A DNA stretch of 64,000 nucleotides from Escherichia coli (GCF_002854065.1 NZ_CP024147.1), one strand, 5' to 3'. Shown: positions 39,001 through 53,901, counted from the stretch's first letter. A program made the numbers.

Positions 39001-42000
39001 CCAGCGCTATCTTGAGAAACATCCTATTAGCCGTCCTGACGAACTCGAACATCACTCCTGTATTTTGATCGACTCGATGATGATCGACGACGCGAATATC
39101 TGGCGCTTCAACGTCGCCGGGAGTAAAGAGGTGCGGGATTATCGCGTGAAGGGAAATTACGTTTGCGACAACACGCAATCTGCGCTGGAGCTGGCACGAA
39201 ATCACCTGGGGATTGTGTTTGCGCCAGACAAAAGTGTGCAGAGAGATCTGCAAGACGGCACGCTGGTGCCCTGCTTTCAGCACCCGTATGAATGGTGGCT
39301 GGATCTGGTGGCTATCTTCCGTAAACGGGAATACCAGCCCTGGCGGGTCCAGTATGTGCTGGATGAAATGCTGCGTGAAATTCGCCACCAGCTTGCTCAG
39401 TCGCAGCAACTGCGGCCTGAACAAGCGGCGGAAAGCGAAGATTAATGATCGAGATAAAGGTAATGCACCCAGCTGGTCATGCGTAATAACACTTTGCGCA
39501 TCACCGAGACATGGCTGAAATGATCAGAGTAGACCGCCACCTGGGCGTAAATACCGTCTGGTAAAGCGCTCAAATCAGTGTGCTCATTCAGTTCAATGGT
39601 CGCGATAACGCCATCTGAACCCGGCGCTGTGTTTAACGTCTGTAAGGTGCCGGTCGACTGATAAGCTCCGCCGGGAACGGCTGGACTAATGGCTGCCAGC
39701 TTACCGCTGAATACCTTACCTGGCAGAGCATTAAACACCACTTCCGCATCGTCGCCAGGGGCCAGTCGCAGCAAGGAGTTCTGACGGAACTGCGCCACAA
39801 TTTGTCGTTTCTGATCGGGTATAAACACCATCACCGGACGTAGCGGCAGCGACGCGGCATAGGTACCCGGACGAATCAGTACCTGGGTCACATAACCATC
39901 GCTCGGCGCACGCACTATCGTCTGCTCAAGGTTATATTTTGCTTCCGCGAGCTGCGCTTTCAGGCTGGCGATTTGAGAATGTTCACCCAACACCAGGCTA
40001 TCCAGCTGGCTCTGGATCTGTTTTTGTTCCGCCGCCGATGACTTCACGGAGGCTTCCTGCGCCAGATAATTTTGCCGCGCCACATCGATATCGCGTTCTG
40101 AAAACGGGTTTACTTTCGCCTGGCTGCCGCGTGCGTAACGCTGATACTCTTTAGCGAATTTATCCCGCGTGGCCTTTGCCTGCTGAGTATTCGCCGCCAT
40201 CTCATCTAACTCTGCGCCCAACGCCCGCTGTTTATGTTCTGCGGTAACGATATCCGCCATCAGCCGATCCACCTGCGCCTGATAACGCGTCGGGTCCAGT
40301 CGAAATAGCACCTCACCTTTTTTAATTAGCGTATTTTTCTTGTCCGTCACTTCGATCACCACGCCTGTCACCTGCGGGACAACAGGAATAGAAATAACCG
40401 CTTTTTGCGCTTTAAAGGTATACGGATGGTTATAGTTCATTAACAGAATTAAACCGCTGACAATAAATATTCCACCCAGGGCCGCGGTGGGAATGGTCCA
40501 TTTATTTACAGGAATTTTGAAGATCTTAAACATTGCCCATGCGAAAGCCACATAGGTCAAAATAATCAGTAAATCCATAAGTATTACTCGGCAGAAGAGG
40601 ATTTGATGTCAGCGAGCTGTTTCTCCAGCCCAGCAATACGCTGTTGTAGTTGCACAACGGAGGAGTCATGGTTTTGCATTCCCCATCCCCGCTCCGGGCG
40701 GTAAAGCGTGGCCCAAATCCACAAAAATGGCCAGATAACATGCAGCGTAAAAAGACTCACCCAACCAGCAACATGAATGGCGTCGGCATGAGGATGATTA
40801 CGTTTTTTAGCAATCAGGTAGGGAATATCATGTAAAATAATAATCCCATAGAATATCACCAGAAATACAAAAATAAGCACTCCCAGTGCAAAATAGTCCA
40901 GGAACATATTTCCCTCAGAGAATATAAAAAAGAACAATTAACACATATTATGAAATGCCATGATGCAGTGCAATTTCCTTATTTATATAACGACATATTA
41001 TTTTTTATATACTTTCTGAAGTGTGCTGCGTGGCTTTTCAACAGGTCGAGGTTTATCATATTGAAATAATGGAACTATTGGCCAAATTTATGATTAAAAA
41101 CCGTAAAACATCCACAATGCAGATTAAGCGTATTAAACCTTCAATAATCTACCGTTTATTGCTGATTGTCCTCGGAATACCAATGGTGATTTACGGTCTG
41201 GTTTGCCCGCTCACCATCGAAACGCGAGATTAAACTCCTGGCAAAACACACCCCAGAAACGCACTTTTGTTGGCGTAGTCTGGGTTATTGCACACGTAGG
41301 TTTAAAACGTAAATTGTAACAACGTGCGCTTTGTTTATGCCGGATGCGGCGTGTACGCCTTATCCGGCCTACGGTCAGGTCCCCGTAGGCATGATAAGAC
41401 GCGTAAGCGTCGCATCAGGCAATTAATACCCGATGCGACCAGCTTCTTACATCAGAACAGCCCCAACGGTTTATCTGAGTAGCTCACCAGCAGGCACTTG
41501 GTTTGCTGGTAATGCTCCAGCATCATCTTGTGGGTTTCGCGTCCAATGCCTGATTGTTTGTAGCCGCCAAACGCCGCATGTGCCGGGTAAGCGTGATAAC
41601 AGTTGGTCCACACGCGCCCGGCCTGAATGCCGCGCCCCATCTTATAGGCCAGATTACCGTTGCGGCTCCAGACGCCTGCGCCCAGGCCATATTGCGTATC
41701 GTTCGCCAGCTCCAGCGCTTCTTCCATCGTTTTGAAGGTGGTCACCGCCAGCACCGGGCCAAAAATCTCTTCCTGGAACACCCGCATATTGTTCTGACCA
41801 AACAGAATCGTCGGTTCAAGGTAGTAGCCGTCTTTCAGTTCGCCTTCCAGCAGCTTGCGCCGCCCGCCGGTGAGCACGTCTGCGCCCTCTTTTTTACCGA
41901 TATCAATGTAGTTGAGGATGGTTTCCAGTTGCCCGTGAGAAACCTGCGCACCCATTTGCGTCACGCTGTCGAGTGGGTTACCGCTGCGAATGCTTTCGAC

Positions 42001-51000: not shown

Positions 51001-53901
51001 ATAGTCAGTCTTTTTCTCGGCGGCGAGTTGGTGCTCCAGCCGGGAAATTCGGTCAGAAAGTGCGGCGATTTCCGGGTCAGTCGCTTTCTCCTGCGACGCA
51101 ACATGTGACTGCATACCCCAGCCACGCTCCGGTTGATAGAGCGTCGCCCAGATCCACAGAAACGGCCAGATAACATGCAGAGTAAACAGGCTCACCCAGC
51201 CCGCCGTATGAATAGCGTCGGCATGGGGATGGTTGCGCTTTTTGGCAATCAGATAAGGGATGTCATGTATCGCGATGATTCCATAAAAAATCACCAGAAA
51301 GACGAAGATCAGCACTCCCAACGCGAAATAGTTTAGAAACATATTTGCCTCGGATTCACGTTTATCAGTGTTGTTTTTTGGCTGGCAGCCAGAAGGGAGT
51401 CAGGCTGATATTTTGACAATAATCCGGGTTCGCGATTCTCGCCATAACACCAAAGAATAATTTTTAGAGGTGATGAGTTGCTTAGTTACATAACGATTGT
51501 ATGACGAAGGCATAACATGCTGTAGATCACATCAGGTGAACGCCGTAAGAAAATATCTTGTGATTCAGATCACAAAGATTCAACAAACCATCAAAACAAA
51601 AATGTGACATTAGTCACATTTAAATGCCATTTTTAGCGAAAATCGCCGCCTTGTTGCTTTTTTACACAAGCGTTTTGTGATGAACATCACGTCAATTACC
51701 TCTCTACCCCCTATATTTATGTGATTGATATCACACAAAAGGCCGTCGACTGGACAGTTAACCGATTCAGTGCCAGATTTCGCAGTATCTACAAGGTCCG
51801 GCTACCTCTGCCGCCACATTAACAAAAAACCTCGGGCTTCCAGCCTGCGCGACAGCAAACATAAGAAGGGGTGTTTTTATGTCATCCGATATTAAGATCA
51901 AAGTGCAAAGCTTTGGTCGTTTCCTCAGCAACATGGTGATGCCAAATATCGGCGCGTTTATCGCGTGGGGTATCATCACCGCGTTATTTATTCCAACAGG
52001 GTGGTTACCGAACGAGACGCTGGCGAAGCTGGTCGGGCCGATGATCACTTATCTCCTGCCGCTGCTGATCGGTTATACCGGTGGTAAGCTGGTAGGCGGC
52101 GAACGTGGCGGCGTAGTCGGTGCCATCACCACCATGGGCGTTATCGTCGGCGCAGACATGCCGATGTTCCTCGGTTCTATGATTGCAGGTCCGCTGGGCG
52201 GCTGGTGCATTAAGCACTTCGACCGCTGGGTAGACGGTAAGATCAAATCCGGTTTTGAGATGCTGGTGAATAACTTCTCCGCAGGCATCATCGGGATGAT
52301 CCTCGCCATTCTGGCATTTCTCGGCATTGGCCCGATTGTTGAAGCCCTGTCCAAAATGCTGGCTGCGGGCGTTAACTTCATGGTTGTCCATGACATGCTG
52401 CCGCTGGCGTCTATCTTTGTTGAACCGGCGAAAATCCTGTTCCTCAACAACGCCATTAACCACGGTATCTTCTCGCCGCTGGGTATTCAGCAGTCCCATG
52501 AACTGGGTAAATCCATATTCTTCCTGATTGAAGCTAACCCAGGTCCGGGTATGGGCGTGCTGCTGGCGTACATGTTCTTTGGTCGTGGTAGCGCTAAACA
52601 GTCTGCGGGCGGTGCGGCAATTATCCACTTCCTGGGTGGTATCCACGAAATTTACTTCCCGTATGTGTTGATGAATCCGCGTCTGATCCTGGCCGTTATC
52701 CTCGGCGGTATGACTGGCGTGTTCACGCTGACTATCCTGGGCGGTGGTCTGGTTTCTCCGGCATCTCCGGGTTCTATCCTTGCTGTACTGGCGATGACAC
52801 CAAAAGGTGCTTATTTCGCTAACATCGCGGGTGTGTGTGCGGCGATGGCTGTCTCCTTTGTTGTCTCTGCTATTTTGCTGAAAACCAGCAAAGTGAAAGA
52901 AGAAGATGATATTGAAGCAGCAACTCGTCGTATGCAGGACATGAAAGCTGAGTCTAAAGGTGCATCTCCGCTGTCTGCGGGCGATGTGACTAACGACCTG
53001 AGCCACGTACGTAAAATCATCGTTGCCTGTGACGCCGGTATGGGTTCAAGTGCGATGGGCGCAGGCGTGCTGCGTAAGAAAATTCAGGATGCAGGTCTGT
53101 CGCAGATTTCGGTCACTAACAGTGCGATCAACAACCTGCCGCCAGATGTGGACCTCGTCATCACTCACCGTGACCTGACCGAACGCGCTATGCGCCAGGT
53201 TCCGCAGGCACAGCATATTTCGCTGACCAACTTCCTCGACAGCGGCCTGTACACCAGCCTGACCGAACGTCTGGTTGCTGCCCAGCGCCATACTGAAAAC
53301 GAAGTGAAAGTGAAAGACAGTCTGAAAGACAGCTTTGACGATTCCAGTGCTAACCTGTTCAAACTGGGCGCGGAGAACATCTTCCTCGGTCGCAAAGCGG
53401 CCACCAAAGAAGAAGCGATTCGTTTTGCTGGCGAGCAGCTGGTGAAAGGCGGTTACGTTGAGCCGGAATACGTTCAGGCGATGCTGGATCGTGAAAAACT
53501 GACCCCGACTTATCTGGGTGAGTCTATCGCGGTGCCACACGGTACGGTTGAAGCGAAAGATCGCGTACTGAAAACGGGCGTGGTGTTCTGCCAGTACCCG
53601 GAAGGCGTGCGCTTCGGTGAAGAAGAAGATGACATTGCCCGTCTGGTGATTGGTATTGCTGCCCGTAACAACGAGCACATTCAGGTTATCACCAGCCTGA
53701 CCAATGCACTGGATGATGAGTCCGTCATCGAGCGTCTGGCACACACCACCAGCGTGGATGAAGTGCTGGAACTGCTGGCAGGTCATAAGTAATCCAATCC
53801 CACCCTCTCCACATGGAGAAGGTGGGGCTAATTGCCTAATGCGCTACGCTTATCAGGCCTACAGGATGCATCACAATTTGTTGAATTTGCACGTTCTTGT
53901 A

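Follow-up and report, generated by a model that had tools for sequence, protein, structure and literature searches.

Among the described export systems that come closest to the genes studied here, EmrAB-TolC has an MFS pump gene, emrB, which follows the adaptor gene emrA; the PET/FUSC systems (aaeX-aaeA-aaeB, ytcA-mdtN-mdtO-mdtP and ydhIJK) always hold the pump (AaeB, MdtO) within the operon; and MacAB-TolC, AcrAB-TolC and HlyBD-TolC draw their energy from an ABC or RND transporter whose gene adjoins that of the adaptor. The TolC gene of Escherichia coli is unlinked for all systems. Short membrane proteins such as AcrZ, YajC and DUF1656 proteins bind the pump and are dispensable modulators. 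In this study, we analysed a 64,000-nt stretch of E. coli DNA (GCF_002854065.1 NZ_CP024147.1; hereafter the window), in which two gene pairs, yiaW-yiaV and yibI-yibH, each encode a small inner-membrane protein of the DUF3302 family and a periplasmic adaptor of the HlyD type (membrane fusion protein, MFP). An initial annotation of the window had reported that neither pair adjoins a pump, and indeed no ABC, RND, MFS or PET efflux pump is found among the neighbours in the window. It had also regarded the function as uncharacterised, and the literature agrees: YiaV and YibH appear without an assigned transporter, the 2024 review of the y-ome still has yibH and yibI as uncharacterised (PMC11551758), and our literature search found no mechanistic study of yiaV, yiaW, yibH, yibI or DUF3302. 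Here we describe the two pairs as most likely the products of an ancient duplication of a single cassette of two genes, conserved and autonomous; it has the appearance of a tripartite export system of a distinct and unstudied kind.

Results

Both modules lie on the minus strand of the window. The first consists of yiaW (40584..40907), whose 107-aa DUF3302 product has two transmembrane helices, a loop rich in His, Asp and Arg and, at the C-terminus, a short coiled-coil tail, and yiaV (39442..40578), whose 378-aa product is an EmrA-like periplasmic adaptor carrying two transmembrane helices at the N-terminus and a conserved helix at the C-terminus (open reading frame (ORF) list, Pfam and RefSeq name). 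The second consists of yibI (50980..51342), encoding a 120-aa DUF3302 protein, and yibH (49841..50977), encoding a 378-aa adaptor, the paralogues of yiaW and yiaV, respectively. According to the ORF list and the DNA comparison, 5 nt (TAATACTTATG, 40579..40583) separate yiaW from yiaV and 2 nt (TAATTATG, 50978..50979) separate yibI from yibH, which bears out the coordinates, lengths and 2-5 bp spacing of the initial annotation. Its distance of about 10 kb between the modules is right when measured start to start (10.4 kb), but the DNA between them amounts to 8.9 kb. The ATG of yiaW is at 40907 with GAGGGA just ahead, and the mechanical ORF begins instead at a TTG at 40937. The 5-nt junction implies co-transcription of yiaW and yiaV, and their translation is probably coupled.

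The paralogy of the two modules was confirmed by BLASTP. YiaV and YibH are identical at 290 of 378 positions (77%) without gaps, close to the 75% that had been estimated by eye, and YiaW and YibI show 74% identity overall. The C-terminal block of the adaptors, described earlier as identical, is near-identical (38 of the last 39 residues) but not fully so. As had been described for the small partners, a membrane domain is common to both and the tails are divergent: residues 1-78, which comprise both membrane helices and the loop, are nearly identical, and the tails align solely via a common short coiled-coil pattern. The DNA of the modules is alignable over the coding part only, at 69-70% identity, and 213 of the 343 DNA differences between the adaptor genes fall at third codon positions, with saturated synonymous divergence (dS). 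Together, these three features show that the duplication is old. The high similarity in the protein alignments is what the proposed paralogy depends on, and together with the DNA comparison it indicates a real, old relationship between the modules, not chance.

The two genes behave as a unit far beyond E. coli. We sampled 72 Enterobacterales loci, 80 metagenome loci, about 12 long contigs and seven annotated plasmid or chromid records; the genome-collection scan gave the best 80 matches and Enterobacterales only, and diversity came from a metagenome scan with a distant first sequence. The adaptor gene follows the DUF3302 gene at a distance of -8 to +40 nt in every Enterobacterales locus that extends far enough. 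It is also found after DUF3302 in 70 of the 80 metagenome loci, and eight of the other ten end within 200 nt; of the remaining two, L167 carries an adaptor fragment, and L093, a short contig, is the sole exception without an adaptor. The gene order is kept in every long contig read, and the pair is present in annotated records of Agrobacterium, Pseudoalteromonas, Pantoea, Phyllobacterium, Citrobacter koseri and Eleftheria. Overall, the coupling spans Alpha-, Beta- and Gammaproteobacteria in essentially every sampled locus. Module decay was seen in Salinivibrio kushneri (L178, 6001-7806), where the gene after DUF3302 is interrupted or replaced by an IS4 transposase. Two Citrobacter strains (L060 and L061) have a third module copy adjoining a LysR gene, and LysR regulator genes lie near several module copies, including those of Serratia and Citrobacter. 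Apparent second adaptor copies downstream of the module in L080 and L120 were artefacts, as tblastn shows one copy in each.

The small partner belongs to a well-delimited family. YibI matches Pfam PF11742 (DUF3302) over residues 3-78 with an E-value of 3.3e-41 (77-position model), YiaW is 74% identical to it, and RefSeq labels both as DUF3302 domain-containing protein; with the Pfam matches of the adaptors given below, this substantiates the pairing of a small inner-membrane protein with an HlyD-type adaptor in each module. No NCBIfam family matched YibI and no solved relative was found for it. The family comprises 819 clusters at 50% identity (E <0.001), and no fusion of DUF3302 to a transporter was seen among the members listed, because all of them are only 70-229 aa long. 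In 59 non-redundant members, L3, Y5, L8, H26, D27, P29, A33, R36, H38, P39, A43, I44, H45, W49, S51, L52, L55, H56, W59, P60 and W65 are invariant or near-invariant. This conserved set includes four His, one Asp and one Arg in or around the basic inter-helix loop (KKR). The most conserved stretch, codons 26-56 of yibI (51175..51267, minus strand), holds H26, D27, P29, A33, R36, H38, P39, A43, I44, H45, W49, S51, L52, L55 and H56, and the same His/Asp/Arg stretch was located in codons 26-56 of yiaW (40740..40832, minus strand) by alignment to YibI and family conservation. The loop between the helices is probably cytoplasmic, and by the positive-inside rule the acidic tail would then be periplasmic. 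A BLASTP comparison of YibI with AaeX aligned nothing past 5 residues (E 2.3), and Pfam on YibI finds DUF3302 only. Weak matches of the DUF3302 profile to rhodopsin helices in the PDB (E about 1e-3) were judged to reflect hydrophobic bias. None of the PADLOC models of anti-phage defence matched YiaV, YiaW, YibH or YibI.

The adaptors were assigned to the HlyD superfamily with the Pfam profiles PF00529, PF16576 and PF13437; YiaV matches CusB_dom_1 (2.5e-15), HlyD_D23 (1.8e-9) and HlyD_3 (0.008). YibH reaches the cut-off of the generic model TIGR01730 (99.9 vs 94.9) and YiaV stays just under it (88.4). The nearest NCBIfam models are MdtN, EmrA/EmrK and AaeA, all far below their equivalog cut-offs (TIGR00998, 113 vs 391; NF007785, 113 vs 376; NF007850, 62-75 vs 400; NF011715, 53-57 vs 563). 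An AlphaFold2 (AF2) model of YibH from a 32-sequence alignment has a predicted local distance difference test (pLDDT) score >90 through most of the lipoyl, alpha-hairpin and beta-barrel parts. In this model, residues 2-19 and 26-50 form two N-terminal helices and residues 356-374 a C-terminal one (pLDDT 81-91), in which R361, R366 and W370 are invariant and S369 nearly so in the same alignment. The best fold match in the PDB is EmrA in the 2025 cryo-EM structures of EmrAB-TolC (8ZAL/8ZAR; E 1e-20, TM-score 0.67), followed in Foldseek by MacA, AcrA and MexA, with the whole range at E 1e-20 to 1e-10.

Both termini of the adaptor are characteristic. All DUF3302-linked adaptors carry the N-terminus M-x-[EL]-L-[IL]..Y...W..FK.F[KR][IL].P.N.WT, forming two helices, and the C-terminus ..[IV].RK[IV]L[LI]R[MI].SW..Y..., and these termini are the same in every hairpin-length class (about 315, 335, 378 and 435 aa). 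Throughout the Enterobacterales, the length of 378 aa is unvarying. In yibH, AF2 and family conservation place the two transmembrane helices, with the conserved basic loop FK.F[KR]IP.N.WT between them, in codons 1-50 (50828..50977), and the conserved basic amphipathic C-terminal helix in codons 355-374 (49856..49915). The corresponding parts of yiaV, codons 1-50 (40429..40578) with the two N-terminal transmembrane helices and codons 355-374 (39457..39516) with the conserved C-terminal helix, were identified by BLASTP to YibH and conservation; all four segments are on the minus strand. Judged by these signatures, the partners of DUF3302 all belong to one adaptor subfamily.

The neighbourhood of the modules was searched for pumps and outer-membrane channels. 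All ORFs within 6 kb were compared by phmmer with AaeB, MdtO, YccS, YhfK, EmrB, AcrB, MacB, TolC and MdtP as references, hydrophobic segments were counted in the two nearest genes on each side in 57 non-redundant clusters, and polytopic neighbours were then classified with NCBIfam. In about 57 non-redundant contexts, no PET/FUSC, MFS-DHA2, RND or MacB-type pump was found as an operon neighbour by this combination of single-reference phmmer, helix count and NCBIfam, which a very divergent or novel transporter with few hydrophobic segments could escape. The annotated plasmid and chromid records have no pump in the operon either, and the only polytopic neighbours identified were CPA1, SulP, PTS, sugar-type MFS and LplT-Aas proteins. 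A dedicated efflux transporter, fused or adjacent, which would have counted against the initial interpretation, is thus absent from the orthologous and the distantly homologous loci sampled. Three kinds of candidate were rejected. A PET pump (AaeB, MdtO, YccS or YhfK) was beside the module in no case among the sampled loci. The MacB-like match that follows the module in L145 belongs to an ABC importer set of the ECF type, which has no counterpart in the close relatives L163 and L177, and we regard it as coincidence. The acrAB-like genes near the modules of L114 and L068 are on the opposite strand, 1.3-2.8 kb away and in separate operons.

A gene for a NodT/TolC-family outer-membrane channel, by comparison, adjoins the module in at least seven independent loci, six of them with the channel directly downstream of the adaptor (L084/L085, L102, L117, L122, L130 and Eleftheria terrae L182) and one with the channel divergently upstream (L161). 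In Eleftheria terrae (L182, 4875-8031), RefSeq annotates DUF3302, a 'biotin/lipoyl-binding protein' and a 'TolC family protein' with gaps of 2-4 nt and no pump; the DUF3302 protein there is a divergent 181-aa form. In none of these seven loci does the operon contain a pump gene. The initial annotation had allowed for either an unlinked partner or a role outside efflux. The presence of an adjacent channel gene in at least seven loci, still without a pump, narrows this choice and favours an export role with DUF3302 as the inner-membrane partner.

Other genes also recur near the modules, though more weakly. Six environmental loci carry CPA1 K+/H+ (Na+/H+) antiporter genes no more than 3.3 kb from the short-hairpin module (L084, 6714-7934; L114, 9487-10740; L115, 108-1319; L117, 4441-5748; L160, 3-542; L161, 10085-10999). 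Their arrangements vary, with one copy 35 nt upstream on the same strand and one 172 nt downstream, and their frequency is far above chance. SulP anion transporter genes are directly beside the module on the same strand in two unrelated loci, at 153 nt (L086, 6109-7848) and 31 nt (L112, 8398-10221). PqiB and PqiA genes (intermembrane lipid transport) are divergently upstream in two distant lineages, a Pantoea agglomerans plasmid (L179, 3754-5406) and L130 (248-4108). In Citrobacter koseri (L180, 1743-2396), the gene immediately before DUF3302 and the adaptor encodes a DUF3313 lipoprotein. This position is taken by a gene for a predicted 222-aa lipoprotein without NCBIfam match in Enterobacter sp. 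kpr-6 (L067) and Biostraticola (L072), and in Rahnella a gene for an outer-membrane beta-barrel lies upstream. In a single metagenome locus (L116, 2647-4266), a gene for an AAA+ ATPase (CDC48/FtsH-like ATPase domain) starts 19 nt after the adaptor on the same strand.

The two modules differ in their distribution. Among the 72 Enterobacterales loci, yibIH is located between mtlA and yibF-selAB in Escherichia, Citrobacter, Enterobacter, Klebsiella, Kluyvera, Lelliottia, Leclercia, Raoultella, Trabulsiella and others, and yiaWV between aldB and yiaU in Escherichia, Citrobacter and Pseudocitrobacter only; Enterobacter, Lelliottia and Leclercia have aldB-yiaU-yiaT with nothing between. A rough neighbour-joining tree places the YiaV clade outside the whole remainder of the Enterobacterales sequences, which suggests an old duplication with losses or a lateral acquisition. 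Complete E. coli genomes carry yibIH in 5383 of 5426 cases and yiaWV in 3769 of 5426 (about 30% are without yiaWV); yibIH is therefore core in E. coli, and yiaWV is accessory within the species. The ratio of nonsynonymous to synonymous divergence (dN/dS) is 0.04-0.15 for both genes of both modules against the orthologues of Citrobacter, Klebsiella and Pseudocitrobacter, with dS saturated, and points to strong purifying selection on both E. coli copies. In the uropathogenic E. coli (UPEC) strain UTI89, urine induces the yibI and yibH promoters, and a yibI deletion mutant has a competitive index of 0.33 in urine and adheres more weakly to bladder cells (PMC5404293).

The window itself holds nothing unknown, because its genes are already known and annotated. 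The region is about 98.3% identical to E. coli 55989 across 14 kb, and gene names are those of the RefSeq annotation of the syntenic region in that strain: yiaT, yiaU, yiaV, yiaW, aldB, yiaY, selB, selA, yibF, yibH, yibI and mtlA. Thus, yiaWV is flanked by yiaU (LysR) and aldB, and yibIH by yibF (GST) and mtlA (PTS permease). Of these, yiaU (38471..39445, plus strand) encodes a LysR-type regulator renamed LpsR and is convergent with yiaV, the 3' ends of the two genes overlapping by 4 nt (39442-39445). The pair yiaU-yiaV is listed as a convergent excludon by ExcludonFinder (PMC12288877), and expression of the regulator and of the module may therefore be mutually exclusive. The targets given for LpsR (YiaU) in the consulted parts of the report on this regulator are yiaT and the waa operon (PMC9068703); yiaW is not named in its main text, in which yiaV was not looked for. 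Promoter and terminator scans of the upstream regions of both modules gave no more matches than shuffled sequence. The aldB-yiaW intergenic region (41290-41440) is full of palindromic repeats resembling repetitive extragenic palindromic (REP) elements, and the yibI-mtlA intergenic region (51560-51740) contains palindromes resembling CRP sites (TGTGATCTGAATCACA type). Between the modules, two tandem copies of the insertion sequence IS1 in the same orientation (44168-44935 and 45021-45788; start-to-start spacing 853 nt) replace the 5' end of yiaY, of which a remnant is left at 43155-44156; in E. coli 55989, yiaY is intact (1152 nt). About 85 nt, with a hairpin at 44957-45007, separate the two copies. 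The gap between yibF and yibH is only 70 nt (49771-49840), and E. coli 55989 has an Rhs element of about 9.6 kb with satellites there. K-12 likewise carries an Rhs element between yibF and yibH (PMC11551758).

Discussion

Here, DUF3302 and its adaptor were found to form a conserved pair. Tentatively, and with slightly less than even confidence, we propose that the pair provides a TolC-type export conduit with its inner-membrane and periplasmic part, and that DUF3302 is the dedicated inner-membrane partner in it. DUF3302 is assigned this role because it is so strictly coupled to the adaptor, because the adaptor is anchored in the membrane in a special way and because the channel operons are free of a pump. 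The EmrA-like fold of the adaptor, the purifying selection and the urine phenotype of the UPEC yibI mutant (PMC5404293) also speak for the proposed conduit. DUF3302 would form a hairpin of two transmembrane helices, with H26, D27, R36, H38, H45 and H56 carried by the loop and the second helix, followed by an acidic coiled-coil tail. The adaptor would be held in the inner membrane by two N-terminal helices, unlike EmrA, AaeA and MdtN, and would end in the conserved basic amphipathic helix. It may oligomerise, by analogy as a hexamer, into a periplasmic tube, and this tube would dock a TolC-family outer-membrane channel (TolC in E. coli). DUF3302 would pack on the membrane helices of the adaptor, and the inner-membrane base would consist of the DUF3302 hairpin and the three membrane-associated helices of the adaptor, in place of an ABC, RND, MFS or PET pump. 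Accepting this model, we infer a physical contact between DUF3302 and the adaptor, docking to TolC in E. coli and a pair that is sufficient in the inner membrane.

An energy source or substrate handling would most obviously be sought in the conserved His/Asp/Arg cluster. It is tempting to speculate about a valve for anions or metabolites driven by the membrane potential, or about a metal- or proton-coupled step via the His/Asp cluster, both of which are guesses. A more far-reaching version, that DUF3302, a YiaV-type adaptor and a TolC/NodT channel form a distinct class of envelope-spanning export system without ABC, RND, MFS or PET components, its inner-membrane unit made up of the helices of the adaptor itself and the histidine-rich two-helix protein, with H26, D27, R36, H38, H45 and H56 as the gate or coupling site for a proton, metal or anion, we regard as doubtful.

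Several observations weigh against an export conduit made of this pair. We know of no precedent for a four-helix unit without an ATPase or an obvious membrane-embedded carboxylate as an energy-coupling module. Most loci, including both in E. coli, have no channel gene beside the module. Contact between the partners was addressed with an AF2 run on a YibI-(GGGGS)6-YibH fusion (32-row paired alignment, with the adaptor alone as control), in which the pLDDT of the transmembrane region did not rise (61-88 with DUF3302 fused vs 70-84 for the adaptor alone); that of the C-terminal helix rose slightly (about 89 vs about 82). The motif RxxxLxxxxxx[S/T] (RLS), which binds the tip of TolC in MacA, AcrA and HlyD (PMC3391258), is at the hairpin tip in none of 28 members of the 378-aa class, YiaV and YibH included. 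An RLS pattern occurs elsewhere in the hairpin in 3 of these 28, and the tip of this class has a conserved VNPFSE insertion. In other classes, in favour of the conduit, an RLS or RLT motif is found at the tip (7/11 long-class, 5/16 short-class and 1/4 mid-class members). Of the controls, MacA, AcrA and MdtN were positive, and EmrA and AaeA are without the strict motif. Since EmrA, which docks TolC, and AaeA do not have it either, its absence in YiaV and YibH does not exclude TolC docking; judged by this motif, confidence in TolC docking by the E. coli proteins is lowered nonetheless. At the level of phenotype, yibH serves as a neutral integration site (PMC5852967), and yiaW gained an IS1 insertion in macrophage-evolved E. 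coli that had no phenotype in the one assay tried (PMC5495878), which indicates that the function is dispensable in the laboratory. Finally, the orphan PET-family proteins YccS and YhfK of E. coli are possible unlinked partners.

This last point leads to the main alternative, which is possible, albeit rather unlikely in our estimate: the pair could serve as accessory and adaptor to a canonical transporter encoded elsewhere, e.g., YccS, YhfK or another secondary transporter, with DUF3302 in the role of DUF1656 (AaeX, YdhI). The nearest NCBIfam models, MdtN, EmrA and AaeA, serve PET and MFS pumps, and the order of the genes, with the adaptor only a few nt behind a small two-helix protein, copies the layout of aaeX-aaeA and ytcA-mdtN. 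However, aaeXAB and mdtNOP have their pumps in the operon, compared with none of about 57 non-redundant DUF3302 contexts, and even operons that encode their own outer-membrane channel are without one. DUF1656 is, judging by cofitness, a genuine efflux component together with MFP and FUSC proteins (bioRxiv 10.1101/072470), but a similarity of DUF3302 to AaeX is not detectable. In E. coli K-12, yccS and yhfK are PET-family genes without an adjoining adaptor gene, and among the environmental loci CPA1 genes lie within 3.3 kb in six and SulP genes beside the module in two. Against an unlinked pump, the adaptor has extra membrane helices that are not found in the adaptors of pump-based systems.

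A role outside transport is improbable. The pair would then be a structure that spans the envelope or reaches into the periplasm and serves to maintain the envelope, to sense stress or to regulate TolC or other outer-membrane components. Envelope genes are indeed found close to the module, namely yiaT (MipA/OmpV) and the lipopolysaccharide regulator yiaU in E. coli (PMC9068703), PqiB or PqiA in Pantoea and L130, upstream lipoprotein genes in Citrobacter koseri (DUF3313), L067 and L072 (222 aa), and an upstream outer-membrane beta-barrel gene in Rahnella; however, no envelope neighbour is conserved between lineages. The UPEC yibI mutant adheres less (PMC5404293), and an energy-coupling feature is not evident in the pair. 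Yet the fold, hairpin and barrel of the adaptor are of the transport-adaptor type, the RLS docking motif is retained by many family members, and the adjacent NodT-type channel genes are typical of efflux operons. That the modules are redundant, functionless leftovers of efflux operons that lost their pump is scarcely credible and strongly disfavoured: although about 30% of complete E. coli genomes are without yiaWV, IS4 disrupts the adaptor gene in Salinivibrio and laboratory mutants are viable (PMC5852967, PMC5495878), dN/dS is 0.04-0.15 in both genes of both modules, the 378-aa adaptor length is unvarying in Enterobacterales, the cassette is intact from Alpha- to Gammaproteobacteria and yibIH is present in 99% of E. 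coli genomes.

Conclusions

The comparative results turn the vague label of 'orphan adaptor' into testable points: an obligatory pair, specific invariant residues and natural three-gene operons. A cassette that works without any canonical pump would represent a new architecture among trans-envelope export machines. An export conduit formed by DUF3302 and its adaptor would add further TolC clients in Enterobacteriaceae, with a bearing on efflux, envelope stress and urinary-tract fitness. Should the partner turn out to be an unlinked pump, long-standing orphan transporters such as YccS and YhfK would gain partners.

Compared with known systems, the adaptors resemble EmrA of EmrAB-TolC (8ZAL/8ZAR, 4TKO) most, which is the best structural and sequence match to YiaV and YibH in the PDB. 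Lipoyl domain, long alpha-hairpin, beta-barrel and N-terminal membrane anchor are common to both, and both are without a membrane-proximal domain and without the strict RLS motif. However, EmrA has one N-terminal helix and YiaV and YibH have two, to which they add the conserved basic C-terminal helix. To our knowledge, no conserved C-terminal helix occurs in EmrA. The genes yiaV and yibH are preceded by DUF3302 with no pump after them, unlike emrA with emrB, and the score against the EmrA family model TIGR00998 is 113, far from its cut-off of 391. With the PET/FUSC systems, the modules have in common a small membrane protein followed by a membrane-anchored adaptor (within 5-7 nt in those operons), MdtN and AaeA among the nearest NCBIfam models, and a LysR regulator that is often near (aaeR; yiaU; the Serratia and Citrobacter copies). 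The pump of those operons is never beside a DUF3302-adaptor pair in the sampled loci, however, DUF3302 is unrelated in sequence to DUF1656/AaeX, and AaeA has a much shorter hairpin and 21% identity to YiaV over 278 residues. MacAB-TolC, AcrAB-TolC and HlyBD-TolC share the general adaptor fold and the concept of a hexameric adaptor tube that docks to TolC by the hairpin tip, and the RLS motif is present in many environmental DUF3302-linked adaptors (PMC3391258). They differ in the adjacent ABC or RND transporter and in having no small obligatory partner gene upstream of the adaptor; moreover, AcrA is a lipoprotein, and AcrA and MacA both have a membrane-proximal domain. Like AcrZ, YajC and DUF1656, DUF3302 is a short membrane protein that appears tied to a tripartite machinery. 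In contrast to these, the DUF3302 gene strictly accompanies that of the adaptor, and its product has a near-invariant His/Asp/Arg signature, which suggests a core rather than a modulatory role.

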